Below the pieces are notes generated by a model, which was given only the letters and a program-made list of their open reading frames with translations, had not been told where the DNA came from and did no database searches. Positions 1 to 14,230 of a stretch of DNA of 64,000 bases are shown one piece after another; within the stretch, counting starts at the first letter, position 1; each line of letters begins with the position of its first letter. Made by a program: the position numbers and the translations under genes. Source of the stretch: Candidatus Thorarchaeota archaeon (lineage in GTDB: Archaea; Asgardarchaeota; Thorarchaeia; Thorarchaeales; Thorarchaeaceae); the NCBI GenBank assembly GCA_048884965.1, contig JBHLQH010000001.1, positions 224,001-288,000 of the forward strand. The letters run 5' to 3'.

Positions 1-412
1 CAATATCTATTCCCACACTGAGGAGTTCCATCTGCTCTGCTTTATCATACATTGGAATAATCTGAGTTCTTGGCTCTGATGAGATTCTTGTGATTTCTTG
101 CTCCTGTAAAGACGCCTTGATTCTCTGTTGTTCTGAGCTAGCAAGAGCTGCATTCAAGATAGGACTAACTTCTGCCACGAGCCTGTCAAAGTGTGGTCCT
201 GGTTGAAGAACTGAAGTAAGAGCTGGCTTGAACTCCTTGATCAGCTGTAGATAGTCTAGCGATTCTGCATGATATTGATCTAAGAGGGTTTCATACTCCT
301 TCGTGAATAACGCTTCAATTGTGGTAGCATTATCACCGAAATGCTCTCTGAAGTACTCACTCACAATCTCGATGATTTGCCATTTGAGTCGGTTGGCGTC
401 TATTATGTTCAG
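1..412 (-). CDS. EutA-like (ASKHA/actin-fold) protein, paralog 2; runs off the left window edge
   Basis: Not in the ORF track. Manual translation gives LNIIDANRLKWQIIEIVSEYFREHF...KEFKPALTSVLQPGPHFDRLV...MELLSVGIDI. This matches the N-terminus (RPALSSVLQPCEEFD) and the FLSVGIDIG motif of 409..2457. Probable CTG start overlaps the upstream TGA (CTGA). Confidence 0.85.
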   Translation of the reverse strand, partial: MNIIDANRLKWQIIEIVSEYFREHFGDNATTIEALFTKEYETLLDQYHAESLDYLQLIKEFKPALTSVLQPGPHFDRLVAEVSPILNAALASSEQQRIKASLQEQEITRISSEPRTQIIPMYDKAEQMELLSVGIDI

Positions 413-2457
413 ACCCCCAGCGAGTACTCTCTGTTCGCATTGAAGACCAAGCTTTTCACAGTAACTGGAAACGCTTCGGTTTCTTTCAATGGTGCTCCAA
501 TGTCTATCCAATCACCAGCTTTAAGGTCAAGTTCATCGATGACCAGAATGTTCTGTTGAATCGAGGTTTCATCACGAATTGCAAGACCCAACCTCTTTGC
601 AACATCATATCCGAAGATTAGGATAATCATCTTGCTATTCGATACAGAATTTGGTAGAGCTTTCTCTATAGTCTTAGCAAAAGGTGCCAGCCATTCATCG
701 CCAGAGTAAAGCCGCGAAAAGATCATCTCTTTGAAGTACAGCGCAACTGTGTCCTGGCCCTCGATCATGTCGAATGTTGTGAATGCTCTCTTGATTTCTC
801 CCTCGAGTATCTCAGGTGTGAATTCTCTCATACCAAGATTTACAGGCAGAACCGGAACGTTTCCTACTGGGAGTTCAATGTCATCGTCAAAGAATGTGGT
901 AGATCCGGAAACGGAGAGTGAAAAGGAACCGGCTCCGATTACTGTTGCTCGTATCTTATTCTCTGGCTCAACAATTGTGAGTCCATGTGCTTCTACAAGG
1001 ACTTTGATTTCCTGTGCCAGTATAACTCCGATGTCGTCGAAGTCGCCCTCATTGCCGTAGTACAACTCAGCAATCCCTCCTGAGAAGGAATAGACGTCTA
1101 CTGGTATAGTGAAGTCTAAATTATCTGTCATCATCAGTTCTTTAGCAATGACACTCTTAGCGGGACCAAGCATTGTTTCAACTAGTGCTTTTGCATATTC
1201 TCGAGCAATAGCTCTTGCATCACCTTCAGGAATTATATCTCCAATCTTGTAGTTCATTCCTAGCTCTTTCATAACGAGCTGAGTAGGGCTGTCTATCCTC
1301 CAGATCTTGAAAGATCTGTCAATTCCTAAGAGACGCCCTCCAACGTTTATACAACTTGTACTGAGGACCTTACCGTTGGACACAATCGCCAAGTTACTTG
1401 TCCCTCCTCCAATATCGATATGAAGAATGGTTTTCCTATCGCGGAATGACTGATCAACAATTCCACTCCCCATTGCACTGAGAAGGGACTCCAGATTGGG
1501 GCCTGCTGCAGCACTTACAAATTTTCCCGATTCTGAGGATAGACGGTTTACTATTTCAGCTGCATTCTGTTTCTTTGCGGTTTCACCTGTCACAACCACT
1601 GCGCCAGTTTCAACCATCTCAGGAGTGATTCCAGCTTTCTTGTACTCTTCTTGGCAGAATAGGATCACAGCATCGATATCAATATTGAATCTATCAATCA
1701 GGGGTGTGAAAATGATGTCACTCTCATAGATGATCTCGCGATTAACGAGATTGAAGCGGTTTGTGATATTGAACAAGCTTGTTTCTCTCTTTAGCGTAAG
1801 TTTGGAGAAGATAAGATGCGATGTTGAAGAACCGATATCTATTCCAACACTCAGGAACTTCATATACTCGACATTCTCAGATGGAATATGCATCATCAGC
1901 AGCTCAATCGGTTCAAATGGCTCCTCATTCTCAGCCACTTCCACTTTGTCTTCATCTCTCTTAGAGATCCTGATCTTCATACTCGACCCACAGTGTGCTG
2001 GGACCTCTACCTCTTCTTCTGAATTGAGAATCTCCATCTTCTTCTCACGGGGAACATCTATCACCTGTTCACAGACCGCACAATAGAATTCAAGATCAAT
2101 CGATCTATCGCTCCCGGGCATGACGGGACCTTTCTTAGGAGCGGCTGGTTTTGATTTTCTACGGTGTGCTCCTTCCCACGATGCTTTGACCATGTACTGA
2201 ATCATTGTCATGAGAGTATCAAATTCCTCACAAGGTTGGAGGACCGAAGATAATGCAGGTCTAAATGAAATAATGAGATTTCGCATGCCTTCTACTTCAG
2301 ATTCATCATTCTTCTCTTGATTCTCTACGAGTCTAACATACTCCTTCTCGAAGGCTTCTCCTATTAGTTCTGCATCCTCCGGAAGGTGTTTCTCGAAAAA
2401 GCCTTTGACGACACTAACGATGTGGTTCTTCATATTTTCGACCATGTCTTCAATCAT
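409..2457 (-). CDS. eutA: Ethanolamine ammonia-lyase reactivase EutA-like ATPase with N-terminal helical domain and Zn-ribbon
   Basis: SVGIDIGSSTSH, VVTGETAKKQNA, SAAAGPNLES, DIGGGTSN, FSGG, IRATVIGAG, GDWIDIG and PVTVKSLVF are EutA hallmarks. ~200 aa N-terminal extension includes CAVC...HC. Confidence 0.85.
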   Translation of the reverse strand: MIEDMVENMKNHIVSVVKGFFEKHLPEDAELIGEAFEKEYVRLVENQEKNDESEVEGMRNLIISFRPALSSVLQPCEEFDTLMTMIQYMVKASWEGAHRRKSKPAAPKKGPVMPGSDRSIDLEFYCAVCEQVIDVPREKKMEILNSEEEVEVPAHCGSSMKIRISKRDEDKVEVAENEEPFEPIELLMMHIPSENVEYMKFLSVGIDIGSSTSHLIFSKLTLKRETSLFNITNRFNLVNREIIYESDIIFTPLIDRFNIDIDAVILFCQEEYKKAGITPEMVETGAVVVTGETAKKQNAAEIVNRLSSESGKFVSAAAGPNLESLLSAMGSGIVDQSFRDRKTILHIDIGGGTSNLAIVSNGKVLSTSCINVGGRLLGIDRSFKIWRIDSPTQLVMKELGMNYKIGDIIPEGDARAIAREYAKALVETMLGPAKSVIAKELMMTDNLDFTIPVDVYSFSGGIAELYYGNEGDFDDIGVILAQEIKVLVEAHGLTIVEPENKIRATVIGAGSFSLSVSGSTTFFDDDIELPVGNVPVLPVNLGMREFTPEILEGEIKRAFTTFDMIEGQDTVALYFKEMIFSRLYSGDEWLAPFAKTIEKALPNSVSNSKMIILIFGYDVAKRLGLAIRDETSIQQNILVIDELDLKAGDWIDIGAPLKETEAFPVTVKSLVFNANREYSLGV

Positions 2458-2499
2458 CGATGATCATCCTCTGTAGCTCTCTTGCAAGATGTATTCGTA

Positions 2500-2540
2500 T
2501 CGACTTATAAAAGATATGTTTATATATTATAAAATACAAT
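2500..2540. promoter_or_regulatory. AT-rich divergent promoter region with TATA-like boxes
   Basis: TTATAAAA and TTTATATATTATAAAA lie between divergent genes. Confidence 0.5.
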
Positions 2541-2548
2541 AATGTATT

Positions 2549-3169
2549 ATGACTCAAAAGGACAGGATTCCATTTCTTTCAGTGCCAGCTGAATCAGGGG
2601 AGCAGGTCCAGCAACGGCTCGTAGAACTGAATTTGCTAGACCCACTTAGAAAAATGGAGAGTCGAAGTGGGAAGATATTCTTTCCTTTGGGGAAGGAGAT
2701 AGTCATGAGTAGTGTATTTCCCGAGATGGACACTGGGGACTGGATTATTGGCTTTAAGAGATTTAGACCAGTGGTATCGGAATCTAAAGCGGTCAAGCGG
2801 AAAAAGATACAAGGAAAAAATAGGGGTAGGAGGACTTTGGCGGAACGTGTAGAATCAATCTTTGAGTTCATAGATATGCAACCCGAACCATTTCCAAAAT
2901 CCGAGTTCCAGAAAATTGGTCTCAATCCAACAACTGCTGAAAGCTGGGTTCGCCTTATCGAGTATATCCAGAATCAGCCAATGATCAAAGTCACACAAAT
3001 GGGATCCTCGACATATATCGAACGACTTGAGAATAGATATCTTAGCATGCTTAGAAAGAGAGTTCTTAATCCAAGTCTGTCAATGAAAGAAAGGACCCAA
3101 ACGATGGAAGATTATATCGGTGCACTCATTACTCTCGAGAAAATCGAAGACGGACGAATCAAGAAATAA
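2549..3169 (+). CDS. Hypothetical protein: Trm5/Tyw2-N-like small domain plus probable winged-HTH
   Basis: The N-terminus (LVELNLLD...KIFFPL) resembles Trm5 N-domains. The C-terminus (RTLAERVESIFEFI...IGLNPTTAESWVRLI...IKVTQMGSSTYIE) has a wHTH pattern. Confidence 0.45.
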   Translation: MTQKDRIPFLSVPAESGEQVQQRLVELNLLDPLRKMESRSGKIFFPLGKEIVMSSVFPEMDTGDWIIGFKRFRPVVSESKAVKRKKIQGKNRGRRTLAERVESIFEFIDMQPEPFPKSEFQKIGLNPTTAESWVRLIEYIQNQPMIKVTQMGSSTYIERLENRYLSMLRKRVLNPSLSMKERTQTMEDYIGALITLEKIEDGRIKK

Positions 3170-3192
3170 TATCAAAGCAATCAATTTGATAG

Positions 3193-3849
3193 TTACAGCC
3201 TCAGTAGACGGAAGTCACACTTACCATTACCTTCTGCTATGATTTCTGTTCGTTCGAATCTAATCCACTTGGAGATGGCTTCCATCATCAAGTAATCGTA
3301 TTCGCATAGGATAGGTCCCAATTCTGGATGCTCATTTGCCTTGAAGATATCAAAGTAGAAGCACTTCGTGATGTCGAACCCTAGCTCATTATCATTATCT
3401 GCAACATATTCTAGATCGAAGTATTGATTCTCATAGTTGTTTTGATTTCCTGTCTTTATATACTCAACAATGGTCTTCCAAGTATCTTCACTGGATTCCG
3501 CGTGAGCCCTGAAGCTGTCAATCGTTTGCTGTATCATATCCTGATAGATTGCAAGAACATGCTGTTTGAATTCCTCAAATGAAACTTTTTCCTGTTGAAG
3601 TACCTCATATAATGCAAGTACAAATGTAGGATTTACTCCATGACGTTTTGAAACAAAATCTGGCATCAAGTCTGCATTCTTCGAGAATACTCTATAGAAA
3701 GCATCTTCGAATCGATTTGCACAATTGCCAGCTTTCCAAACACCATAGGTTTTGGTCAGGTGAGAATAGGTTAAAGTTTTGAGATATCCTACCATTTGTT
3801 CTATGAACTCAGCTTCTGACATGATTTTCTGGGCTAGTTTTTTCATCAT
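3193..3849 (-). CDS. L-2-amino-thiazoline-4-carboxylate hydrolase-family (ATC hydrolase-like) protein
   Basis: Three-Cys C-terminal pattern: KCFY...LCEYD...RTEIIAEGNGKCDF. Confidence 0.7.
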   Translation of the reverse strand: MMKKLAQKIMSEAEFIEQMVGYLKTLTYSHLTKTYGVWKAGNCANRFEDAFYRVFSKNADLMPDFVSKRHGVNPTFVLALYEVLQQEKVSFEEFKQHVLAIYQDMIQQTIDSFRAHAESSEDTWKTIVEYIKTGNQNNYENQYFDLEYVADNDNELGFDITKCFYFDIFKANEHPELGPILCEYDYLMMEAISKWIRFERTEIIAEGNGKCDFRLLRL

Positions 3850-3910
3850 ATTAACTCATCTTGTAGTAACGTATTGTGACTCCTTTCTGTGACCCTTTTT
3901 TGTGGCTTCG

Positions 3911-3920
3911 GTATATATAC
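3911..3920. promoter_or_regulatory. Palindromic TATA element GTATATATAC
   Basis: About 30 nt upstream of the ATG at 3952, in a divergent intergenic region. Confidence 0.55.
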
Positions 3921-3951
3921 TAAATCTGGTACCATATACTTGTGAAATATC

Positions 3952-4053
3952 ATGGCTCTAGCAACTAACTACCGAACTGATTTCGTAAAGAAGAACAAAC
4001 AGGTCGTTTCGACCAAGGCTGTAGGTTATGCCTATGCAACTGTTGTGAGGTAA
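3952..4053 (+). CDS. Small peptide 1 (33 aa) MALATNYRTDFVKKNKQVVSTKAVGYAYATVVR
   Basis: ATG..TAA just downstream of the TATA element; similar to peptide 2; below the ORF-track size cutoff. Confidence 0.65.
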   Translation: MALATNYRTDFVKKNKQVVSTKAVGYAYATVVR

Positions 4054-4059
4054 TTGGAA

Positions 4060-4149
4060 ATGGCTCTTTCCAAGAACACCTATTCACGAAGCACTACTCG
4101 TCCCAAGATTGTCACTGACGCAATCGCTCATGCTTATCTTAGGAGGTAG
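4060..4149 (+). CDS. Small peptide 2 (29 aa) MALSKNTYSRSTTRPKIVTDAIAHAYLRR
   Basis: GAGGT RBS 8 nt before the ATG. Shares the MAL start and TxA[VI][GA][YH]AY motif with peptide 1. Confidence 0.65.
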   Translation: MALSKNTYSRSTTRPKIVTDAIAHAYLRR

Positions 4150-4154
4150 ACCCA

Positions 4155-5480
4155 CTGACCCTCATTACGGCGGAAGAAGCTGAGGTTAGCAAACCTGGCT
4201 TCTCAACTATTCTTCACCGTCCTGACTATCTTCGCCTTTGGCTGGGACAGGTCGTATCAAATGTCGGCACCGCAATAAGCTCACTTGCTCTTCTGTTCTT
4301 TGCCTATTATCTGACTGGTTCTGCCCTTGCAATGGCTATCCTGTCAATCGCACGTGTCGTTCCTGTAGTCCTTTTCTCCGGATTCATTGGCGTCTATGTT
4401 GACCGATGGGATCGAAAGAAGATAATGATAGGTTCTGATCTTCTCCGGACACTCCTCATTCTCCTTATTCCTCTCTCTATCTATTTCCCCCAGAATCTAC
4501 CAACTATCTATTGGGTCTACATTCTAACATTCCTCTACGCCTCTGCTGATGCGTGGTTCTATCCTGCCAGAAATGCCTCGATACCCAATCTTGTTGAAGG
4601 AAAAGAGCTTGTCACCGCGAACTCGTTGTCACAAATGACTTTCCAAGTTGTTCAATTGACGATCCCTCCCTTGGGTGGTGTACTAATTGCACTTCTTGCC
4701 CCCGATTACTTTCTGGCATTTGCGATAAACTCCATTGCCTTTGTCTTGTCAGCAATTTCACTATCTGGTATCAAGACAAATCTAAGACCCCAAAATAGCA
4801 CATCTGAGAAGGAAGCAATGCTCTCCCAGATCTCTGCAGGTGCAAAGGTTGTGATTCAGAATGCAGTTCTCAGTTTCATCTTTGTATTTGCTATTCTGCT
4901 CGCAGTTTCTTCGGGTATTCTCAATGCTCTACTAGTACCTCATTTACAAGGCTATCTTGGGCTTTCTGAAGGGGAGATTGGTCTTCTTATGAGTCTAGGC
5001 GCAGCTTCTGGAATAGTGATAGCTCTTTATCTTGGAAAGAAATCCGACCTGAAGCATCCTCTTGCCATGGTGAACATTGCTGGGATAATTGCTGGTATTG
5101 CTGTTCTTGGTTTCTCTCTTGCTGAAGGATTCGTAGCTGTTGCCCTTTCGTGGACCATCATTGCATCTGTTGATGTGATCCTTAACATCCCCCTAAGTGT
5201 CATAATGCAAAAGCTTGTAGCAGACAAGATGCGTGGAAGAGTATTCTCATTGTTATCAGTGGCTTTCACATCCTTCCAAGTAATCGGAATGGGCATTGGA
5301 GGCATCTGGGCTGAAACGATTGGATCAACCATTCTCCCACTCTTCATATCTGGACTTGCTTTCTTCTTGGTGTCGATAATAGCTGCTCTCTATCTCAAGC
5401 AGTCCCACCTTGGTAGTCGTCTATCAATTATGCTGAGTTCCTCGACCGAAGATCAGTTGGTAGTTGCTAGAACCGATTAG
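4155..5480 (+). CDS. MFS exporter (DHA3/MefA-like)
   Basis: The frame is open upstream of 4332 to a CTG at 4155 preceded by AGGAGGT. This adds TM1 (YLRLWLGQVVSNVG). Motif A GVYVDRWDRKK and RGRV are present. Confidence 0.9.
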   Translation: MTLITAEEAEVSKPGFSTILHRPDYLRLWLGQVVSNVGTAISSLALLFFAYYLTGSALAMAILSIARVVPVVLFSGFIGVYVDRWDRKKIMIGSDLLRTLLILLIPLSIYFPQNLPTIYWVYILTFLYASADAWFYPARNASIPNLVEGKELVTANSLSQMTFQVVQLTIPPLGGVLIALLAPDYFLAFAINSIAFVLSAISLSGIKTNLRPQNSTSEKEAMLSQISAGAKVVIQNAVLSFIFVFAILLAVSSGILNALLVPHLQGYLGLSEGEIGLLMSLGAASGIVIALYLGKKSDLKHPLAMVNIAGIIAGIAVLGFSLAEGFVAVALSWTIIASVDVILNIPLSVIMQKLVADKMRGRVFSLLSVAFTSFQVIGMGIGGIWAETIGSTILPLFISGLAFFLVSIIAALYLKQSHLGSRLSIMLSSSTEDQLVVARTD

Positions 5481-5521
5481 GTCGAGACCTCAGAGGCCCT
5501 CCTCAAAATAGGATGGGTCTC

Positions 5522-5555
5522 GGGGAGAGTGATCAGTGAGCCCTGATCCCTCCCC
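5522..5555. terminator. Stem-loop between convergent genes
   Basis: GGGGAG-GATCAG...CTGATC-CTCCCC imperfect inverted repeat. Confidence 0.5.
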
Positions 5556-5561
5556 ACCCTC

Positions 5562-6197
5562 TTACTTTCTCAGAATCTCTTTCGATTCTTCGAAATATTC
5601 AAGATCCCCTTTTGAAATCAAAACTACAATGTAGAGGAAATGCTTCAGGAAGATATCGAAATCGCTAGAATCAAGAAGATCGGTTAAGAGAATCCTCTTC
5701 TTTCTGGGTATCTTCTTCAAGTATTTTTGAAGGTCATCGAGAAAGACCGAGTCTTCTGATGAGAATTTGAAGTCATCTGGAACCCCTGTAATCTCAGGTA
5801 TTTGCTCCTTAGGTAATGGCCTAGATAGTGCATCAAGATGCTGTATTACTCTGTCGAGTGATCTATTCAATGCATCTGGAGATATACGAGTCATTTTTAG
5901 TGGCTGTTTATAGACAATCAGACTGCTAAGGTCTCTAGGTTTGAGTTCCTTCAATCTACTTACATAAAGCTCGGGTGCTGCAAGAATCCTCGCTAGCTCC
6001 TGTACGCGAATTATCTTTGAGCCCAACATCTCATTGAGCATCTCATCAATATCAAGTCGCGAATCTACATCAGCTGTGAGCTTTCTTAGGTCTTGATACG
6101 CCTCAGCAAGACCCACATCAAGAGGATCGAGTTTTCCCTTCTCAACAGAGTCTACTAATTTCTGTACCTTTGATAGTAGCTTCTCTGTCGTTGTCAA
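5562..6197 (-). CDS. Kleisin/ScpA-like protein
   Basis: Directly after the SMC gene. N-terminal LDPLDVGL and C-terminal FLKHFLYIVVLISKGDL resemble ScpA motifs. Likely TTG start after GAGGTGA. Confidence 0.6.
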   Translation of the reverse strand: MTTTEKLLSKVQKLVDSVEKGKLDPLDVGLAEAYQDLRKLTADVDSRLDIDEMLNEMLGSKIIRVQELARILAAPELYVSRLKELKPRDLSSLIVYKQPLKMTRISPDALNRSLDRVIQHLDALSRPLPKEQIPEITGVPDDFKFSSEDSVFLDDLQKYLKKIPRKKRILLTDLLDSSDFDIFLKHFLYIVVLISKGDLEYFEESKEILRK

Positions 6198-6207
6198 CTT
6201 CTCACCT

Positions 6208-9200
6208 CTATTGCTCCTCAAATTGAGGGCTTTCTATTACAACGGATGGCTCTGTTCCACCTGGTGATACTACACCAATTCGCTTGTCAGCATGTCTCAT
6301 CAGATGCGTGCTCTTTGCTGGAGTGAGTAGGATGAATTGACTCCTGCGTGATGAATCATGAAGAAGTCGACTCACCATTTCAGTATTAGTAGCATCAAGA
6401 AAGGTATCAATCTCATCCATCGCATAGACTGGAGCTGGATTAGATCTCTGCAATGCTAGTATCAGACCAATCGCAATAAGAGACCTCTCACCACCAGAAC
6501 CGGCACTCAATGCTCCGAATTCTTCTCCCTTGATTCTAGTCTTGAATTCAACACCATACTCCTGACTGGATGTGCTAAGCTGAAATTTCACTTCTCCTGC
6601 GAATCTTACGGTTCCAAGAATTAGGTTCACTTCTGTTTCTACCTTGTTCAGAACGTCATTCATTCCATCATGATACTGCTTCTTGATGTCCTTGACTGTT
6701 TCCTCAGCCTCTTTCAATTCCTCTTGGATATCCCCGACCTTAGTTTTCAATTCTAAAAGCCTGTCCTTGAGCTGATTCTCTGTGTGTGCGATTGTTTCAG
6801 AGATATCTCGATATTCATCTAATTGATGCCTGACACGGAGTAATTCATCCCTGACGGTATCAATCTCTCTAACGTTCTTCGGTCTTTTGCTCCCTTTGAG
6901 ATCTTCCTCGATGTTGGTTTTTTGATGTTGATATGTATCATGCTGTCGTTTCGATTGAAGAACTTGATACCTGCTGTTCTTCACCTGTAGATTCAACTCG
7001 AGTATCCTACCGCTTATTTCGCGAATGTTCCCTCGTATTTCCGTCTGTTGAGCAATAAGGTCATTGTACTTGACTGAGGTCTGATCCAAGCTCTCTCTTA
7101 GATTCTCGATGCTCTCCACAATCACAGAACCTTCGGATTTGGTAGAGCTTATCTCTTCACGAAGTTCATCAGCTCTTTCTGAGAGCATTCTTGTACTCTC
7201 CTCAAGTCCGCGAAGTTCCTGTCTCTTCGTTGCCTCATCTCTCTCAGTTACTTGGAGCTTTCCCTCAATTTCTGATAGCTGACTTCTAAGCTTTCGATAT
7301 CTCATTCTAATTGCAGACTGCTCTCCAACCAATCTACTGCGTTCAGGTGGTTGAGTCGAGTCCAATTTCTTAAGGACCCTTTCAGCCTCTCCAATCTTAC
7401 TTTGTAAGTCTTTGATATCATCATCCAAGGCTACTATCCGTTCTTCCTGTTGAGGAATCATATCACGAAGTTTCTTTCTCCGCTCCCATGTTCCACTCCA
7501 TCTAGTGATTTGACTGATTAGATCCATTATCTCTTCTCGCTCTTGAGTAACCTTCTCAATTCCACTCATGACTTCTGTCACTCGATTCTGTGCGAATTTG
7601 AGTTCTGTTTCTGCATCTCCTAGCCTTGCCTGAAGGGGTGCTGTTGCGATCACACCAGTGGGTTCTTGTCTTGGATAACTCACAATTCTCGTTTCTGAGG
7701 GTTCCATTCTTTGTCCCTCTAGGGAAACTGATAGCAAACCTTCTTTCTCTGACACTCTTGTGGAATCTTGGAACTTCGATACAACAACATAATCACCAAA
7801 TGCTTGTCTCAACTTGACAACAGATTCATCGTCTAGCTTGAGAAGTTCCCAAAGCCATCCCTCAACGCCCTTCCTCTTTGGTAGTTCAGGCTTTTCTGCA
7901 AGGGATTTACTTGATCGAAGAAGAATGATGGGTGAGCTGGCTTCAATTTCATTTCGAAGTCGTGTAAGTAGAGTGTACTCGGCTTCGTCCTCAACTAGGA
8001 ACGAGAACGCCATTTGACTTGGAATGACTGCTTCAAGTGCGGACGCGTATTCATCACTACCTGTAAGGAATTCAATTATTGGTCCTGTAACGGTTTCCAA
8101 CTTGTGTTCATGAACAGCCTCTTTCAGCTTTAGGACATTATCAGGTATCCTCTTCGAGCTCTCTGTTAATCTAACCTTGATCTCGTCTATCTCCTTCTGA
8201 AGTTGAGCCACTTGGCTTACGAATCTGAATCTTGACTCATTTAGATTAGAGAGTTCTCGTTCAGCCTGTGCTTTCTTCTTTACTAGTTCCTTTTCGTCGG
8301 TTCCTTCAAGAACAGTCCAAACATGCCCCCATTTATTCTCGATCGCTTGTAATTCAGCTTCATCCACCTGAAGCTTCTCTTGGAGGCTCCTGAAAAGAAG
8401 GTCCTTTCCTTTCAGATCGACCTGAAGCGCCCTGAAAGTTCCCAATGCATCTGACCTTCTGGTATTCCAATCTGCAAATGCTGCCAGCTCGTTTTCTATT
8501 CTAGTTCGTTCCTCTTCAATTTCATCTAGACTTAGAGTGGTCTGTTTCTGATCTTCTAACATGTGCTCCTTCGCTGAGCTTACTCTTCGGAGGTCCTCCT
8601 TTGTCTTGTCCATCTTACGTTTATCTACAGTGATTCTTTTCTCCAGCTCTCTAATCTCATCAAGAGTAGACTTAGTTTCCGATTCTATCTTGGATAATCT
8701 CCTCTCCTCCTCTTCAATTCGGGCGGTGATACTTCCCATCTCCCGCTGAAGTAGAGAGGTCTCCTTCTCAATTACTGTAGCCTTTTGCTCTTCCTTTGTG
8801 ATGGTTTCCTCGAATTTGGAGGTTTCCTCTAGGATCTCTCCAAGACCAAGTTCTTTCTCTTCTATTTCCTGCTTGATATCATCAATCCTTTTCGTTAAAT
8901 CATCTAGAGTAGCCCATTTGACTTCTTTATCCAATTCTTTCTCTTGAGTGAGAAGCTCTCTCTTGCGTTGAAGTCGATCAACATCATGCTGGAGCAGCTC
9001 AATTTCTCGTTCTACAATCTTCGCCTCGCTAGTGGCTGCTTCCAATCTCTCACGACTAAACTGAACTTTCACTTCTTCCATCAGAATTCGGTCACGAAGA
9101 ACACTAAGTCCCGTTCCCTCTTCCACTAATTTCCTCACCTCTATTGGATCCATATCTCTGAGAGCATTGATTCTCTCCTGAGGCATGAAAACTAGCGGAT

Positions 9201-9579
9201 TATCCATATCAAAACCCAGACTATCGACAAGTGTTTGAAGCTCTGCAGCCTTTACCCTTTTGCCATCAACATACGCCCTTGGTATTCCGTCTCTGGTGAT
9301 CTTTCTAGTGAAGGTTCGAAACTGACCATTAACCCGTACCTTGACTTCGACCTCTGCTGAATTGGCACCATGGCGAATAAAATCACTCCATTTGGAGTAT
9401 CTATTCTCTCTCTGATTAGAGCCTAGAGCGAATTTGATTGCATGAAAGATGGATGTCTTTCCTGATCCATTTGGTCCGACGATCACAGTGAGACCTGAAT
9501 CAAACTGAACCAACCCCTCATAGAATGAGAGGAAATTCTTCAATTTGACCGATTCAATGTTTGCGTCGAACTTTCTCAA
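6208..9579 (-). CDS. smc: SMC-family ATPase, Smc5/6-like
   Basis: Walker A GPNGSGKTS, Q-loop FMPQE, long coiled coils with central hinge, signature SGGERS, Walker B MDEID, D-loop LD. Confidence 0.92.
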   Translation of the reverse strand: MRKFDANIESVKLKNFLSFYEGLVQFDSGLTVIVGPNGSGKTSIFHAIKFALGSNQRENRYSKWSDFIRHGANSAEVEVKVRVNGQFRTFTRKITRDGIPRAYVDGKRVKAAELQTLVDSLGFDMDNPLVFMPQERINALRDMDPIEVRKLVEEGTGLSVLRDRILMEEVKVQFSRERLEAATSEAKIVEREIELLQHDVDRLQRKRELLTQEKELDKEVKWATLDDLTKRIDDIKQEIEEKELGLGEILEETSKFEETITKEEQKATVIEKETSLLQREMGSITARIEEEERRLSKIESETKSTLDEIRELEKRITVDKRKMDKTKEDLRRVSSAKEHMLEDQKQTTLSLDEIEEERTRIENELAAFADWNTRRSDALGTFRALQVDLKGKDLLFRSLQEKLQVDEAELQAIENKWGHVWTVLEGTDEKELVKKKAQAERELSNLNESRFRFVSQVAQLQKEIDEIKVRLTESSKRIPDNVLKLKEAVHEHKLETVTGPIIEFLTGSDEYASALEAVIPSQMAFSFLVEDEAEYTLLTRLRNEIEASSPIILLRSSKSLAEKPELPKRKGVEGWLWELLKLDDESVVKLRQAFGDYVVVSKFQDSTRVSEKEGLLSVSLEGQRMEPSETRIVSYPRQEPTGVIATAPLQARLGDAETELKFAQNRVTEVMSGIEKVTQEREEIMDLISQITRWSGTWERRKKLRDMIPQQEERIVALDDDIKDLQSKIGEAERVLKKLDSTQPPERSRLVGEQSAIRMRYRKLRSQLSEIEGKLQVTERDEATKRQELRGLEESTRMLSERADELREEISSTKSEGSVIVESIENLRESLDQTSVKYNDLIAQQTEIRGNIREISGRILELNLQVKNSRYQVLQSKRQHDTYQHQKTNIEEDLKGSKRPKNVREIDTVRDELLRVRHQLDEYRDISETIAHTENQLKDRLLELKTKVGDIQEELKEAEETVKDIKKQYHDGMNDVLNKVETEVNLILGTVRFAGEVKFQLSTSSQEYGVEFKTRIKGEEFGALSAGSGGERSLIAIGLILALQRSNPAPVYAMDEIDTFLDATNTEMVSRLLHDSSRRSQFILLTPAKSTHLMRHADKRIGVVSPGGTEPSVVIESPQFEEQ

Positions 9580-9583
9580 TGGT

Positions 9584-10654
9584 TTACCTTCCCATTATTC
9601 TGCTTAATCTATCACTGGTGCGCTTTGCTCGCATCAATCTGGTAAGTCTATCTTCTGCGTTCCCTGTTAGGAGGAATGGGTACCTGCTCAAGAACTCTGC
9701 ATCTGCTGGAGCTAATGGTAGGCTCGCATTCAAGGACTCGATGACACGTTGTGTTCCTTGGAAATCATCACCAACGGCCATTAGATACAGTTGGTCCAAG
9801 AAGTCATCAGGATAAGAGTGCTCGATTGACTCATAGGTAGGAACATGACTCCCCTGAGTTGTACGTGAAATTCTCTGACGTGTTTCACTTCGTGATATTC
9901 CAATTATTCCGCTCGAATCCAAAATCTGTTCGAGCTTGCCTCTGGGTATCGGGTTTGATTCCTCGGGCACATCTGTGTGAAGAGTTACTGAGAGATGCAC
10001 TAAATCAGAAAATCCCCAGCCTTCTGTGATTTCCGCCAGAGTTGTTGGATCCAAGTCTTTTCTTCCCTCTAAAAGCGATTCAAGCACTTTTACCCTCTCC
10101 TCCATTTGTATGGTTTCAAAGATAAAAACACGGTCAAAAGTCGTAAGTATCTCATCTTCTATCCGTTCGGGGAAGACAGTTGCCGCAACTACCGCGATCT
10201 CATGTTGATCCCATGTTGTTTCTCTAAGAGCACTAAGAAAGACAGAAGCATATTCCTTGCCTTTCTCTGCCAGGGCATCTAGCTTGTCGATATAGATGAC
10301 AGCTGGCGAATTTCGCTTGGCGAATTCAACTAATGTTCTTATGGCATCAGATACTTGGTGAGCTTCTCCGAATGCATGAGTCAGTCTTAAGCGAATGATC
10401 TTCAGTGGCGTTTCATATGCAATATGGTGAACAAAGGATTCAAAGTCGGTTCCTGCCGCTCCAAGGAGGAGTACTCTTCCACCAAAGATCAATCCCTTGC
10501 CATGCAGCTTCTCTCGGAAGCTACCATATTTGGCAAGCACACTCTGGAACTTCTTTGCCTTATCTAGAACCGAAGGCTGACTAAATCGGTCAGCGTCCAA
10601 ATCTTCTGGTTCTTCTAGGATTACAACCTCGGTAATGGCGTCTGGTCTACTCAC
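9584..10654 (-). CDS. Degenerate (pseudo) AAA+ ATPase of classical CDC48/FtsH-like type
   Basis: VLLLGAAGTDFES (Walker A lacks Lys), IYIDKLD (Walker B E>K), AAT..P..ID, FDR and TEGWGFSDL. Confidence 0.7.
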   Translation of the reverse strand: MSRPDAITEVVILEEPEDLDADRFSQPSVLDKAKKFQSVLAKYGSFREKLHGKGLIFGGRVLLLGAAGTDFESFVHHIAYETPLKIIRLRLTHAFGEAHQVSDAIRTLVEFAKRNSPAVIYIDKLDALAEKGKEYASVFLSALRETTWDQHEIAVVAATVFPERIEDEILTTFDRVFIFETIQMEERVKVLESLLEGRKDLDPTTLAEITEGWGFSDLVHLSVTLHTDVPEESNPIPRGKLEQILDSSGIIGISRSETRQRISRTTQGSHVPTYESIEHSYPDDFLDQLYLMAVGDDFQGTQRVIESLNASLPLAPADAEFLSRYPFLLTGNAEDRLTRLMRAKRTSDRLSRIMGR

Positions 10655-10812: not shown

Positions 10813-12528
10813 ATGACAAAGACAACTGAAAGCCTCAGGGAAAGCATATGGCAGGTGATCACTACAGTTGAGAGTAGAGGTCTCTTCGTCCACTCTGAGG
10901 AACTTCCCATCAAGTATAAGGCACAGGCGCGCTCAAGCTCCAAGATTAGCTCAGTACGACTACCACTTATTGCAGGAGCATGCGTTTTGAATTCACTGGT
11001 CCCTCGCTCAGCAATGCTCCTCGTAGGTGGACATGGCGGCGGAAAGACCACCCTTATCAAACTCTTGGGACGCATGTTAACTGGTAGGAGCCTCGATGAG
11101 ATTGATGAGGGTATGCTCAGAGGACATCCCCAGCTAACGGAGGAGAAGATGGTTGCAACTCTACGACCCGGTCCGCTCATGAAGGATGGAGTCGAAGTCG
11201 TTGTATGGCGTCAGTTCGTAACTAACTTCTGGAAGATTATCGATGAAGCCAATCGTTTGACACCACATGCTCAGAATATTCTTCTTTCCATGCTAGCTGA
11301 AGGTGAATTGAAGTATTACGATGAAGTCATGCACTGCGATGATTACTGTCTTTATGCAACGATGAATCCCACTGATAGTGGCACCTTTGACCTTGCACCG
11401 CCTTTCCTTGACCGTTTTGGTATGGCTGTCCCTATAACTATGCCAACCATCGATGATCTCGAACTCATACTTTCCTCGCGTGATGATCGCCTTTTTGGCT
11501 ATGATGAGATGTGGCAAGTACCGGCGATTACTACCGAGGAGGATTTGCTGACAATATGGAACCTTGCAGACAAGGTACCAGTATCACAGGAGGCATCAGA
11601 GTTCATGAGATCTCTTGTGCGTGAATTTGGGGCGTGTATCCGGGTTGATAAGAGTCAGACTCACTCCCTGACTGTTGAAACTGGTCTCTGCGATAGTTGT
11701 CACTATAACACAGCCAAGAGTGTGTGCAATAAGGTCATCATTCCTCTCAGCGTTCGCGCGGTCAAAGACCTCAATCGCTATAGTAAGGCTGCTGCATGGC
11801 TTATCGGAGCTCCTGAAGTAGGCATAGAACTAGTCAAATCCTTGGCACCACTAATATTCTGGCACCGTACTCGTTTTGTGACTGAAGGTATTGAGAAATC
11901 TCCCTTCTTTGGAAACTCCTTTGAATATACGAAGCATCTAGTAGAGCTTGCCTCTTCAAGATTCGCACAGCGCGAGCCTGCCATTCGACTAATGGACAAA
12001 CTGAAACAGGGTGAAGGTGATAAGACAATACTTGAGGAGCTATCAGAAATGGGCAAGAGCGACCTTCTTGTTCGACTCGATTATATCAAGTTCGCAAAGG
12101 AATTGCAGAAATCGACCTATGCGGCGATGGTGAAGAACATAGAGAAAGCAGTGAAGTCCTCAAGTGTGAAGGACCTAACAGAGCTACAGCAGCAGATATT
12201 GGAAACGACAGATTTTCCAAATCGTAGTATGCTCCTAAGCCGAATATCTGAAGCCCTACACAAGCTAACACTCTCCCAATTCTCACTCACGTTTGAGCAA
12301 TGGCAGGATCTCTGGACAACGATAAGCTTGAAGATTCCCAAGATGACAAGCATTCTCAAAGAGACCCTCAAGCCACCTAAGCGAAAGGTCGTTCGGACTG
12401 ATGGCGTTACGCTTGTTGTCTATGTAACCGGAAGTACGCCCGAATCACCTGTCTTCCTTGAAATCTCAGGCGGCACACAAGCATTGGATCTACGAAAGGA
12501 AATAGAGAAACACATTTCATCCGAGTGA
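10813..12528 (+). CDS. MoxR-like AAA+ ATPase
   Basis: GGHGGGKT, IIDEANRL.P..QN.LL, ATMNP, PFLDRF, SVRA. Confidence 0.85.
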   Translation: MTKTTESLRESIWQVITTVESRGLFVHSEELPIKYKAQARSSSKISSVRLPLIAGACVLNSLVPRSAMLLVGGHGGGKTTLIKLLGRMLTGRSLDEIDEGMLRGHPQLTEEKMVATLRPGPLMKDGVEVVVWRQFVTNFWKIIDEANRLTPHAQNILLSMLAEGELKYYDEVMHCDDYCLYATMNPTDSGTFDLAPPFLDRFGMAVPITMPTIDDLELILSSRDDRLFGYDEMWQVPAITTEEDLLTIWNLADKVPVSQEASEFMRSLVREFGACIRVDKSQTHSLTVETGLCDSCHYNTAKSVCNKVIIPLSVRAVKDLNRYSKAAAWLIGAPEVGIELVKSLAPLIFWHRTRFVTEGIEKSPFFGNSFEYTKHLVELASSRFAQREPAIRLMDKLKQGEGDKTILEELSEMGKSDLLVRLDYIKFAKELQKSTYAAMVKNIEKAVKSSSVKDLTELQQQILETTDFPNRSMLLSRISEALHKLTLSQFSLTFEQWQDLWTTISLKIPKMTSILKETLKPPKRKVVRTDGVTLVVYVTGSTPESPVFLEISGGTQALDLRKEIEKHISSE

Positions 12529-12538
12529 AGGTGGTCCT

Positions 12539-14230
12539 ATGGAACGAGCTGAAGGTCTTGAAACTGCCGCACTCAAAGCATGGTTCCAAGCGATCTCAGA
12601 TTTCTACAACCCTCCCTTGCCAGATCCCGTCATAGAACACGATGAGGACGCATCCTCATTCTTTTACATCGATTCTAAGAGTTGGACTGTTCATTTGAAC
12701 ACCGCTGGTGTTCCCTTGAATCTTTCAGTCAACGAATCGGAATCATACCTTCGATCTGTCTGCCACCATGAGATCCAGCATTATCTGCTATGCCCATACG
12801 ATGGCGTGACGAATGGCATGTTGTTCGCAGGTGCAAGAAAGCATCTCTCAGATAACCTTGCGATGTTCGTTTGCAATATATTTGCAGACCTTGTTGTAGA
12901 CTCCAATCTTCTCAAAAGATACCAGATAGTGACTCACTCAAGAATTACGACATCCATTCACGACTCCTCGCTAAGGACACGAGATCACAGCCCACTTTGG
13001 AAGCTAGTCATTGCGATCTATCGCTGGATGTGGGGTTTTCCTATCCCCACAGGTGTTGATATTGATCAAGCGACCATCCAAACGGCGAACCTAATCACAG
13101 AGACTGCCAAGGAGTATCTTGAGAACGAGTCTCGATGGCCAAAGGCTACTGAGATGATTGCGAAGATTGTGTCAGAATGGCTTCCAGAACAAGAAGAGGA
13201 ATTTGGTGGGACCGGATTGCAAGAGGGACCTGAAGATGGGTCGATTCTGGTTCCTGCTGACCTTGATGGAGTAATGGGTAGTCCGACTGAGGATCGGAAT
13301 GGGGATCGCGCCAGAAAATGCATTTCACCTGAAGAAGTTTCAAATATCGATGAAGAGATGGAGCGATTAGCAGTTGAAGTGGAAGAGCGTGGGGGTAGCC
13401 TGAAAGACCTTGAAGCTGTCTATATCATAGCTGGTGCTGGCACGGGCAATAAGGATTGGATTCGTTTCTGGTACCGAGCGAAAGTTAGAGGGGTGCTCAG
13501 ATTTCAGGTTCGTCAAATGAGACCTCAAGGGGCAGTCCCTCTCAACCCGAGTCCTTGGCGACTTGGTGACCCTATTGAAGAATTGGATGTTGTGCAATCT
13601 CTACAGACATTTCCTGTATTGGTACCAAACATGTCGACACGCAGGTGGCTCAGAACGGTTTACTATGGTGAGGACCCTCGGAGCGAATTACCCGATCTTC
13701 TTGTGGTACTCGATTCCAGTGGCTCAATGACCTGGTCAATGGGCAAGAGTGACCTTAGGGGTGCCTATCATGTCGCATTGGTTTCTGCTTTAGCTGCAGT
13801 TGATACGGCACTTCGAAAGGGCAGTAGTATTTCTGCGATTAACTTCTCAGGAAATATCCTGAAGTGTGGGTGGACTCGTGACCGTTCCGAAATCGAACGG
13901 ACACTGCTCGCATATCAAGGTGGTGGAACCGTTATGCCAATCAATACCATCCAGGAGCTGTGTGATGAGTCCCTCTCTTCGGTGATGAGCGTCATTATCA
14001 CAGACGTAGGAATATCTAATTGGGGTCCATTTGTAAAAACAATTGAGAAACTCTCGAAGCAAGGACATAAGATGTTCATCTTCCATATCGGTGGTAAGAA
14101 AGAGAAGGTCTCGAAATCTGTCAATCAACTCATGCAGGCAGGAGCTTTTGTTATACCCGTTTCGAGTGTAAGAGACTTACCTGGACTCGTTGTGTCGGAA
14201 GTTCATCGAACATACATGCCCAGTACCTAA
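12539..14230 (+). CDS. vWA-domain protein with N-terminal HExxH metallopeptidase-like domain
   Basis: HHEIQH with downstream NIFAD; MIDAS LDSSGSM, GGGT, IITD. Confidence 0.85.
   Translation: MERAEGLETAALKAWFQAISDFYNPPLPDPVIEHDEDASSFFYIDSKSWTVHLNTAGVPLNLSVNESESYLRSVCHHEIQHYLLCPYDGVTNGMLFAGARKHLSDNLAMFVCNIFADLVVDSNLLKRYQIVTHSRITTSIHDSSLRTRDHSPLWKLVIAIYRWMWGFPIPTGVDIDQATIQTANLITETAKEYLENESRWPKATEMIAKIVSEWLPEQEEEFGGTGLQEGPEDGSILVPADLDGVMGSPTEDRNGDRARKCISPEEVSNIDEEMERLAVEVEERGGSLKDLEAVYIIAGAGTGNKDWIRFWYRAKVRGVLRFQVRQMRPQGAVPLNPSPWRLGDPIEELDVVQSLQTFPVLVPNMSTRRWLRTVYYGEDPRSELPDLLVVLDSSGSMTWSMGKSDLRGAYHVALVSALAAVDTALRKGSSISAINFSGNILKCGWTRDRSEIERTLLAYQGGGTVMPINTIQELCDESLSSVMSVIITDVGISNWGPFVKTIEKLSKQGHKMFIFHIGGKKEKVSKSVNQLMQAGAFVIPVSSVRDLPGLVVSEVHRTYMPST

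Follow-up and report, generated by a model that had tools for sequence, protein, structure and literature searches.

A second SMC with its own kleisin and kite in a Thorarchaeota genome, a probable member of the archaeal SMC5/6-related lineage

The stretch of DNA analysed here (the window; 64,000 nucleotides of Candidatus Thorarchaeota archaeon, assembly GCA_048884965.1, contig JBHLQH010000001.1, positions 224,001 to 288,000) carries P0001, a gene for a second SMC (structural maintenance of chromosomes) paralogue that is distinct from the condensin Smc-ScpAB of the same genome. We consider it probable that P0001 is the ATPase of a second SMC-kleisin-kite complex in the archaeal 'SMC5/6-related' lineage, sister to short, mostly TACK SMCs whose kleisins are of the Nse4_C type. 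This kind of gene has been published already and P0001 adds a Thorarchaeial member to it; the additions made here are kleisin and kite families that had no annotation, a conserved pseudo-AAA partner, and a connection of the Asgard family with the short SMCs, mostly of TACK archaea, that have Nse4_C kleisins.

P0001 is an intact SMC distinct from the canonical Smc-ScpAB of its genome

The P0001 frame is open over 1123 codons (Table 1), and in its translation the Walker A motif, the Q-loop glutamine, the signature serine and glycine, the Walker B Asp-Glu pair and the D-loop aspartate are all intact. The Q-loop region reads LVDSLGFDMDNPLVFMPQERI, the signature SAGSGGERS and the Walker B/D-loop LALQRSNPAPVYAMDEIDTFLDATN, and the hinge includes SLEGQRMEPSETRIVS; all the strings quoted in the original prediction, which had described these motifs together with a hinge lacking GX6GX3GG, were found in this intact frame. 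Pfam PF02463 (SMC_N) covered residues 8–1105 and PF06470 (SMC_hinge) matched residues 496–606 (29 bits; cut-off 22.5). The best NCBIfam model was the archaeal SMC_prok_A, TIGR02169, which matched end-to-end but at 290.3 bits against a curated cut-off of 729.4; the third-best was the ASRP model NF045487 (132 bits; cut-off 300), and Rad50 models scored far lower than TIGR02169. The AlphaFold2 model (pLDDT 80.5) consists of the heads and two arms of ~330 amino acids, with residues 495–645 modelled as an alpha/beta domain (pLDDT ~85). The head fold superposed alike on the heads of Smc, Smc1-6 and Rad50 (Z 28–35; Z 35 with the Pyrococcus Smc head) and so did not discriminate among them. P0001 is an intact, strongly divergent SMC in the broad sense, with a hinge and not a zinc hook.

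The canonical gene lies elsewhere in the source genome (4.09 Mb in 99 contigs). The SMC on contig 35 scored 872 bits to TIGR02169, above the equivalog cut-off that P0001, at 288–290 bits, stayed below, and it is the only one adjoined by Pfam-recognised ScpA (PF02616) and ScpB (PF04079); neither P0003, the kleisin encoded with P0001, nor the kite that belongs to it had a Pfam match to ScpA or ScpB. A Thorarchaeota orthologue of P0001 scored ~59 bits against the canonical SMC, so the two paralogues are very distant. The earlier view that P0001 is not the canonical condensin Smc was supported by these comparisons. Two further SMC-superfamily proteins are encoded in this genome, one of 694 amino acids (G000:C30:21160-23100) and one of 431 amino acids (G000:C11:35126-36370), both with Rad50/ASRP matches below threshold; no protein of the genome reached the Rad50 model cut-off. 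A preprint (van Hooff et al., bioRxiv 10.1101/2024.01.07.573240) counts two SMC5/6-related SMCs in another Thorarchaeia genome, and the second of them may be homologous to the 694-residue protein.

The P0001 family is conserved across several Asgard classes

A search of 1.84 billion protein cluster representatives returned 56 representatives homologous to P0001 at E <= 1e-30, and the proteins listed by homology searches with P0001 all came from Thorarchaeota or other Asgard archaea. Family members and canonical SMCs separated cleanly, the former scoring 130–1350 bits to P0001 and 20–95 bits to canonical SMC, the latter ~110–150 and 200–880 bits, respectively. Among 151 Asgard genomes the family was present in six family-level groups, including 23 of the 26 sampled Thorarchaeaceae genomes and 23 of the 25 in a second large family group, with identities to P0001 of 24–57% (canonical SMCs scored 70–120 bits in the same scan). 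Members that carry a source name come from Thor-, Baldr-, Jord-, Sigyn-, Prometh- and Helarchaeota; the Asgard classes represented are Thor, Baldr, Jord, Sigyn and Loki/Hel. Occurrence in several deep Asgard classes indicates that the duplication is old, and near-universal presence with fixed synteny in the Thorarchaeaceae argues for a core function. A class of ~1-Mb genomes that includes a locus titled Hodarchaeaceae (G155 and 40 genomes of that class) had, among matches at E <= 1e-30, SMC-like proteins of ~640 and ~770 amino acids only and no full-length SMC; either the taxonomic name is questionable or SMCs are reduced in this class, and it tells nothing clear about Heimdallarchaeia.

In an alignment of 45 members G35, G40 and K41 (Walker A, GxxGxGK), Q134, S1028, G1030, D1055, E1056 and D1062 were invariant, and we accordingly expect ATPase activity throughout the family. 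The hinge consensus of the same 45 sequences was VTLDGxxxxxxxxxxxSxP, as compared with LDGDLxExSGxIxGG in canonical SMCs: the first glycine of the canonical block is kept (LDG/LEG) and the distal Gx3GG is gone family-wide. A zinc-hook CxxC in the middle of the protein was found in 0 of 30 members. By group consensus, the PQE Q-loop and the SGGER signature are conserved among Thorarchaeota members only, the other Asgard members having QG and SGGQ.

The Asgard family groups with short, mostly TACK SMCs in head-domain trees

Trees were built from N- and C-head domains extracted with hidden Markov models (IQ-TREE, LG+C20+F+G with posterior mean site frequencies, PMSF) and covered archaeal SMCs and a Rad50-like outgroup. 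In a tree of 68 taxa that used two Rad50-like proteins as outgroup, the canonical SMCs of archaea formed one clade (ultrafast bootstrap, UFBoot, 94/SH-aLRT 83) that takes in TACK SMCs and the contig-35 SMC of the source genome. The Asgard family was monophyletic (UFBoot 95/SH-aLRT 94) and sister to a set of SMC-like proteins of 555–692 amino acids (UFBoot 100/SH-aLRT 94), with the Rad50-like proteins outside it as outgroup. When 12 SMC-like proteins from further loci were added, they fell within the short group (aLRT 95.4), and the sister relation of this group to the Asgard family was recovered again (aLRT 94.8). The trees thus favour, without proving, a placement of the node joining the Asgard family and the short SMCs outside canonical SMC.

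The short SMCs have neither a zinc hook nor a Pfam hinge. In 10 of the 12 further loci (L037, L040, L044, L046, L047, L050, L052, L055, L057 and L058) the SMC gene is followed by one of 219–282 and one of 180–225 codons, a kleisin-kite pair; locus titles include Thermofilales, Bathyarchaeia, Nitrososphaerales and Methanomethylicia, among others. The kleisin of a Methanosuratincola short-SMC operon, at 30.8 bits, exceeded the gathering score of Pfam Nse4_C, as did kleisins in 9 of 251 TACK genomes (61 of 251 at E < 0.01). A family-profile scan found one full-length SMC per TACK genome and no second one. Assignment of these ~600-residue proteins to the ASRPs was considered and rejected, given ASRP model scores of 43–107 bits (below SMC_prok_A), the lack of a zinc-hook CxxC and the kleisin-kite operons downstream.

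P0001 is encoded with a kleisin and a kite

A kleisin gene overlaps the end of P0001 in the window (Table 1). Neither P0003 nor 15 family kleisins had any Pfam match, and the P0003-family profile matched three solved ScpA C-terminal winged-helix chains weakly. In HHalign comparisons the Asgard kleisins aligned with the Nse4_C-type, mainly TACK kleisins at 97.3% probability (E 2.8e-11, 204 columns, score 80) and with Thorarchaeota/TACK ScpA at 92.2% (E 5.7e-7, 181 columns, score 51); Nse4_C-type kleisins and ScpA aligned at 40% (E 2.9e-4, 74 columns). The protein-language-model neighbours of P0003 included a cluster rich in Bathyarchaeota, with Nse4_C in 18% of its members (score 0.93), and a eukaryotic Nse4 cluster (0.84). 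P0003 is a kleisin, and profile comparison places it nearer to Nse4-type kleisins than to ScpA.

The kite gene is not adjacent to the kleisin gene in the source genome. Six further loci from this archaeal order have genes of ~170 and ~120 codons directly 3' of the kleisin; here their orthologues are ~10.8 kb away, with genes for an MFS transporter and ATC-hydrolase-like and EutA-like proteins in between, from which we conclude that an insertion split the operon. The kite is 62% identical to its orthologue in another Thorarchaeota genome, and its AlphaFold2 model is a tandem winged helix (pLDDT 79). The 13 best Foldseek matches of this model were all kites (ScpB, MAGE-A3, JetB, Nse3, Nse1), with MukE a few ranks lower (E 4e-6 for ScpB, 1.4e-5 for MAGE-A3 and ~1e-4 for Nse3/Nse1), and the Asgard kite profile aligned with the kites of the short-SMC operons (HHalign 87.9%, E 3.2e-6, 152 columns). 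The ~170-residue protein is a kite, with a modelled fold that fits ScpB and Nse1/Nse3 equally. A Pfam MAGE match on contig 7 of the genome, which sits among unrelated housekeeping genes, was rejected as spurious.

If P0001 works as the ATPase of such a complex, two copies would dimerise through the SMC-type hinge without distal glycine motif and their ABC heads would engage on ATP; the 219-residue P0003 would connect one head, at its neck, with the other, at its cap, the kite would bind the kleisin as a dimer, and the resulting ring would entrap DNA or translocate on it. We infer ring assembly and DNA entrapment by the P0001 complex, which, by analogy with Smc5/6, may have a role in DNA repair or junction handling.

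Profile scores shift the family toward Smc5/6 relative to canonical SMC

Against full-length solved chains the single P0001 sequence scored 74 bits with Smc2, 57 with Smc5, 57 with Smc1A, 55 with Smc3 and 54 with Smc6, as compared with 207–260 bits for Smc1-4 and less than ~52 for Smc5/6 when the canonical SMC of the genome was used. Two matched 45-sequence profiles, A3 for the P0001 family and A4 for canonical SMC, were then compared with solved structures, along with the corresponding C-head profiles A6 and A7, which remove coiled-coil noise (Table 2). These scores, taken for both families, indicate a shift of the P0001 family toward Smc5/6 relative to canonical SMC. At the sequence level the affinity that canonical SMC has to Smc1-4 is largely lost and affinity to Smc5/6, chiefly Smc6, is modestly raised, leaving the family about equidistant from all eukaryotic SMCs. 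Foldseek ranked yeast Smc4 first for the full-length P0001 model, then Smc6/Smc5, then Smc2, an order that depends on the completeness and folding of the deposited chains; the hinge did not come up among the matches of this model. Language-model neighbours of P0001 included clusters of eukaryotic SMCs negative for the Pfam hinge and SMC6 clusters, which we treat as a lead only.

Table 2. Scores (bits) of the P0001-family and canonical SMC profiles against solved structures
Target	P0001 family	Canonical SMC
Smc1-4, full profile (A3, A4)	158–275	524–634
Smc5, full profile	170–195	149–173
Smc6, full profile	181–187	142–143
Myosin (coiled-coil background), full profile	88	175
Smc1-4, C-head only (A6, A7)	60–80	114–148
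Smc5, C-head only	56–62	57–80
Smc6, C-head only	52–63	<44

The original prediction had called P0001 Smc5/6-like rather than canonical, and it is supported in part. What speaks for it is the grouping of P0001 with archaeal SMCs that have Nse4_C-type kleisins and the close likeness of its own kleisin to those; P0001 clustered neither with canonical Smc nor with Rad50 in the head trees, the two outcomes named beforehand as contrary to that call. The motifs put forward as a resemblance to Smc5 fared worse. A 65-residue segment around the Q-loop found its best solved matches in Smc2 and Smc3 (NNPNFLIMQGRI, SNPYYIVPQGRV), not in Smc5/6; since, in addition, PQE and SGGER are confined to Thorarchaeota and only the hinge loss is family-wide, the argument from motifs is valid only in part.

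Gene neighbourhood

In 15 other loci the gene order is a P0002-like gene (270–480 codons), the SMC and the kleisin (~190–255 codons), followed in most of them by a gene of ~150–220 codons and, in most loci of the Thorarchaeota order, by a further one of ~120 codons. In each of these 15 the gene next upstream of the SMC is a homologue of P0002; in distant Asgard classes only their C-terminal half (~180 amino acids) could be aligned. The motifs of P0002 are degenerate (Walker A GAAGTDFES, Walker B DK), Walker A and B being dead in the Thorarchaeota members, and we regard it as an AAA+-like protein, predicted to be catalytically degenerate and a conserved upstream partner of the SMC. As a lineage-specific addition to the complex P0002 is joined by the Zn-ribbon/winged-helix protein, which is probably another such partner. 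Next to the module, Thor-, Jord- and Baldrarchaeota loci carry a pair of MoxR-type AAA+ (~570 amino acids) and vWA-like (~565 amino acids) genes, divergent in the first and co-directional in the Jord/Baldr type, and the recurrence of this pair suggests a functional link to the SMC module.

Table 1. Features of the P0001 module and its surroundings (positions in the window, or in the source genome G000 and locus L029 where so marked)
Feature	Length (aa)	Coordinates	Strand	Remarks
SMC paralogue P0001	1123	window 6208..9579	-	N-head ~1-165, arm, hinge ~495-645, arm, C-head ~990-1123
Kleisin P0003	219	window 5562..6221	-	start overlaps SMC stop by 14 nt; homologue directly downstream of SMC in 15 other loci
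AAA+-like protein P0002, predicted degenerate	356	window 9584..10654	-	PF00004, 43.5 bits; ends 4 nt before SMC start
MoxR-type AAA+ and vWA-like proteins	571 and 563	window 10813..14230	+	AAA_5 match; weak VWA_2 match; divergent from SMC module
Kite	171	G000:C1:218235-218750 (L029:1480-1995)	-	outside window
Zn-ribbon/winged-helix protein	119	G000:C1:217813-218172 (L029:1058-1417)	-	beside kite, outside window
Insertion (~10.8 kb)		partly window 1..5561, rest toward G000:C1:217813-224000		MFS transporter, ATC-hydrolase-like, Trm5_N-like and EutA-like genes; separates kleisin from kite and Zn-ribbon/winged-helix genes

Alternative explanations

Several results weigh against a place of P0001 in the SMC5/6-related lineage. 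Among solved structures the single sequence scored highest on prokaryotic Smc heads, the absolute similarity of the family is higher to Smc1-4 than to Smc5/6, and the N-head alone was equidistant from SMC, Rad50 and Smc5/6. In an approximately unbiased (AU) test under LG+F+G4, monophyly of the Asgard family with canonical SMC was not rejected (p = 0.45), the constrained and free trees differing by only 1.8 log-likelihood units. Pfam Nse4_C (PF08743) matched no Asgard kleisin, either in the 151 Asgard genomes or among the 15 family kleisins, so the link of P0003 to Nse4 is transitive, running through the mainly TACK kleisins. The kite goes undetected by Pfam MAGE, and over both of its domains VIA-align gave a tie between ScpB (Z 10.3, 146 residues) and Nse1 (Z 10.0, 155 residues). 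In the analysis reported in the van Hooff et al. preprint, monophyly of all eukaryotic SMCs was not rejected either (p-AU 0.317). The module might then be a fast-evolving Asgard duplicate of the canonical Smc-ScpAB operon without any special Smc5/6 ancestry, its grouping with the short Nse4-type SMCs and its Smc5/6-like residues having arisen by long-branch attraction and convergence, as the AU result would allow and as the best solved-structure matches (prokaryotic Smc and Smc1-4), the clear relation of the kleisin to ScpA as well (92%), the ScpB identity of the top kite matches and the lineage-specific PQE and SGGER would all fit. We hold this to be rather improbable, because a model that suffers less from long-branch attraction, the site-heterogeneous PMSF, recovered the clade with the short SMCs at UFBoot 100/aLRT 94, the Nse4 type gives the kleisin a higher score than ScpA does (80 vs 51), the family profile scores Smc5/6 above the canonical profile despite its lower coiled-coil background, and the spread over deep Asgard classes makes the duplication an old one. 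Caution is nevertheless in order, as the resemblance of the motifs to Smc5 is partly lineage-specific and the deep topology is statistically insecure.

An SMC, kleisin and kite accompanied by genes particular to the lineage also recall systems of defence against mobile elements or plasmids, of the Wadjet/MksBEFG or Lamassu kind, in which P0001 would be the motor and the pseudo-AAA, MoxR and vWA proteins effectors or regulators, the complex then not serving to maintain the chromosome. PADLOC reported similarity at the level of the head to mad3 (113 bits), LmuB (97 bits) and JetC (40 bits), two kite homologues matched DUF4194/JetB weakly, and JetB and JetC were among the structural matches. The PADLOC matches, however, covered generic ABC head segments only, that to JetC at 40 bits a coiled-coil stretch only, and the kleisin, kite, MoxR and vWA proteins had no PADLOC match; the conserved module lacks a JetD/Toprim-like nuclease, and fixed synteny in 23 of 26 Thorarchaeaceae and 23 of 25 genomes of the second group is unlike the patchy occurrence of defence islands. 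A defensive function of this kind therefore seems quite improbable to us. Still further from what was observed would be an ASRP of the coalescin (ClsN)/Sph type or a protein of the Rad50 type. The original prediction had seen a coalescin-type likeness, NF045487 is the third-best NCBIfam match and SGGER is typical of Rad50 too, but 132 bits is far under the 300-bit cut-off, an SMC hinge is present (Pfam 29 bits, and folded in the model) in place of any CxxC zinc hook, Rad50-like proteins fall outside the family, and P0001 has the kleisin and kite that are reported missing from ASRPs (PMC9389158). The coalescin-type likeness was accordingly not borne out, and we give this identity hardly any credence.

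Significance

We return to P0001 as the probable ATPase of an SMC5/6-related complex. Eukaryotes have four SMC complexes, and the origin of Smc5/6 remains a matter of debate; among known prokaryotes the Asgard archaea are their nearest relatives. Since an intact module apart from Smc-ScpAB is present in these relatives, it is natural material for the biochemistry of a pre-eukaryotic 'Smc5/6-like' complex, with which eukaryotic Smc5/6 may share specific ancestry. Most worth pursuit are the pseudo-AAA and Zn-ribbon/winged-helix partners and the kleisin and kite families that had no annotation. A more speculative proposal, which we think unlikely, is that the Asgard complex is a larger machine, in which SMC, kleisin and kite would work obligatorily with the dead AAA+ and Zn-ribbon/winged-helix proteins, often beside MoxR/vWA, as counterparts of the accessory or loader subunits of Smc5/6 (Nse5/6- or Nse2-like), the short, mostly TACK forms being reduced derivatives; if true, the machine would be a testable intermediate toward eukaryotic Smc5/6.

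Comparison with known systems

With Smc-ScpAB the P0001 system shares domain order and head fold; P0003 is homologous to ScpA, and the kite superposes on ScpB. It differs in the score of P0001 to the archaeal SMC model (290 bits vs a cut-off of 729), in the loss of the hinge Gx3GG, in the separate clade formed in head trees and in a kleisin and kite that Pfam does not recognise, the true Smc-ScpA-ScpB operon being on another contig.

Eukaryotic Smc5/6 (Smc5-Smc6-Nse4-Nse1-Nse3) likewise combines SMC and kleisin with kite, not hawk, subunits, and has a hinge without the distal glycine motif. The rod-like P0001 model aligned over ~1150 columns with Smc6 and Smc5 (TM-score 0.25–0.34), and the preference for Smc5/6 is stronger in the P0001-family profile than in the canonical one. 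Unlike the eukaryotic complex, the P0001 system has one SMC gene and one kite gene, whose products are presumably homodimers; none of Nse2, Nse5 and Nse6 was identified for it, Pfam Nse4_C and MAGE miss its kleisin and kite, and in absolute sequence similarity it is closer to Smc1-4.

The nearest comparison is with the archaeal SMC5/6-related complexes published in 2021 and 2024-25. Yoshinaga & Inagaki (2021; PMC8665677) described an 'SMC5/6-related aSMC', mostly from TACK and a few Asgard archaea, that groups with Smc5/6, and their later study recovered Smc5/6 together with SMC5/6-related aSMC at 100%/0.99 (Yoshinaga & Inagaki, 2022; PMC9389158). SMC5/6-related SMC-kleisin-kite operons of Asgard and TACK archaea are the subject of the preprint by van Hooff et al., and the P0001 family presumably corresponds to the Asgard SMC5/6-related SMC of that work. 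For the single Thorarchaeia genome in its table the preprint gives two SMC5/6-related SMCs, one Nse1/3-related kite and an Nse4-related count of 0; going by that entry, the Thorarchaeota kleisin family seen here escaped that search. The pseudo-AAA gene upstream of P0001, the gene for the Zn-ribbon/winged-helix protein and the neighbouring MoxR/vWA pair are not mentioned for these complexes in the accessible parts of the publications, and the Asgard members are full length (~1120–1180 amino acids), unlike the mostly TACK relatives found here (555–692 amino acids). As in the published cases, P0001 is a second SMC beside a canonical one in an Asgard or TACK genome; the order SMC-kleisin-kite, which the preprint gives for Prometheoarchaeum genes 495–497, was the same in all the non-Thorarchaeota Asgard loci examined here; and the sister group of the P0001 family in the head trees has kleisins of the Nse4_C type.

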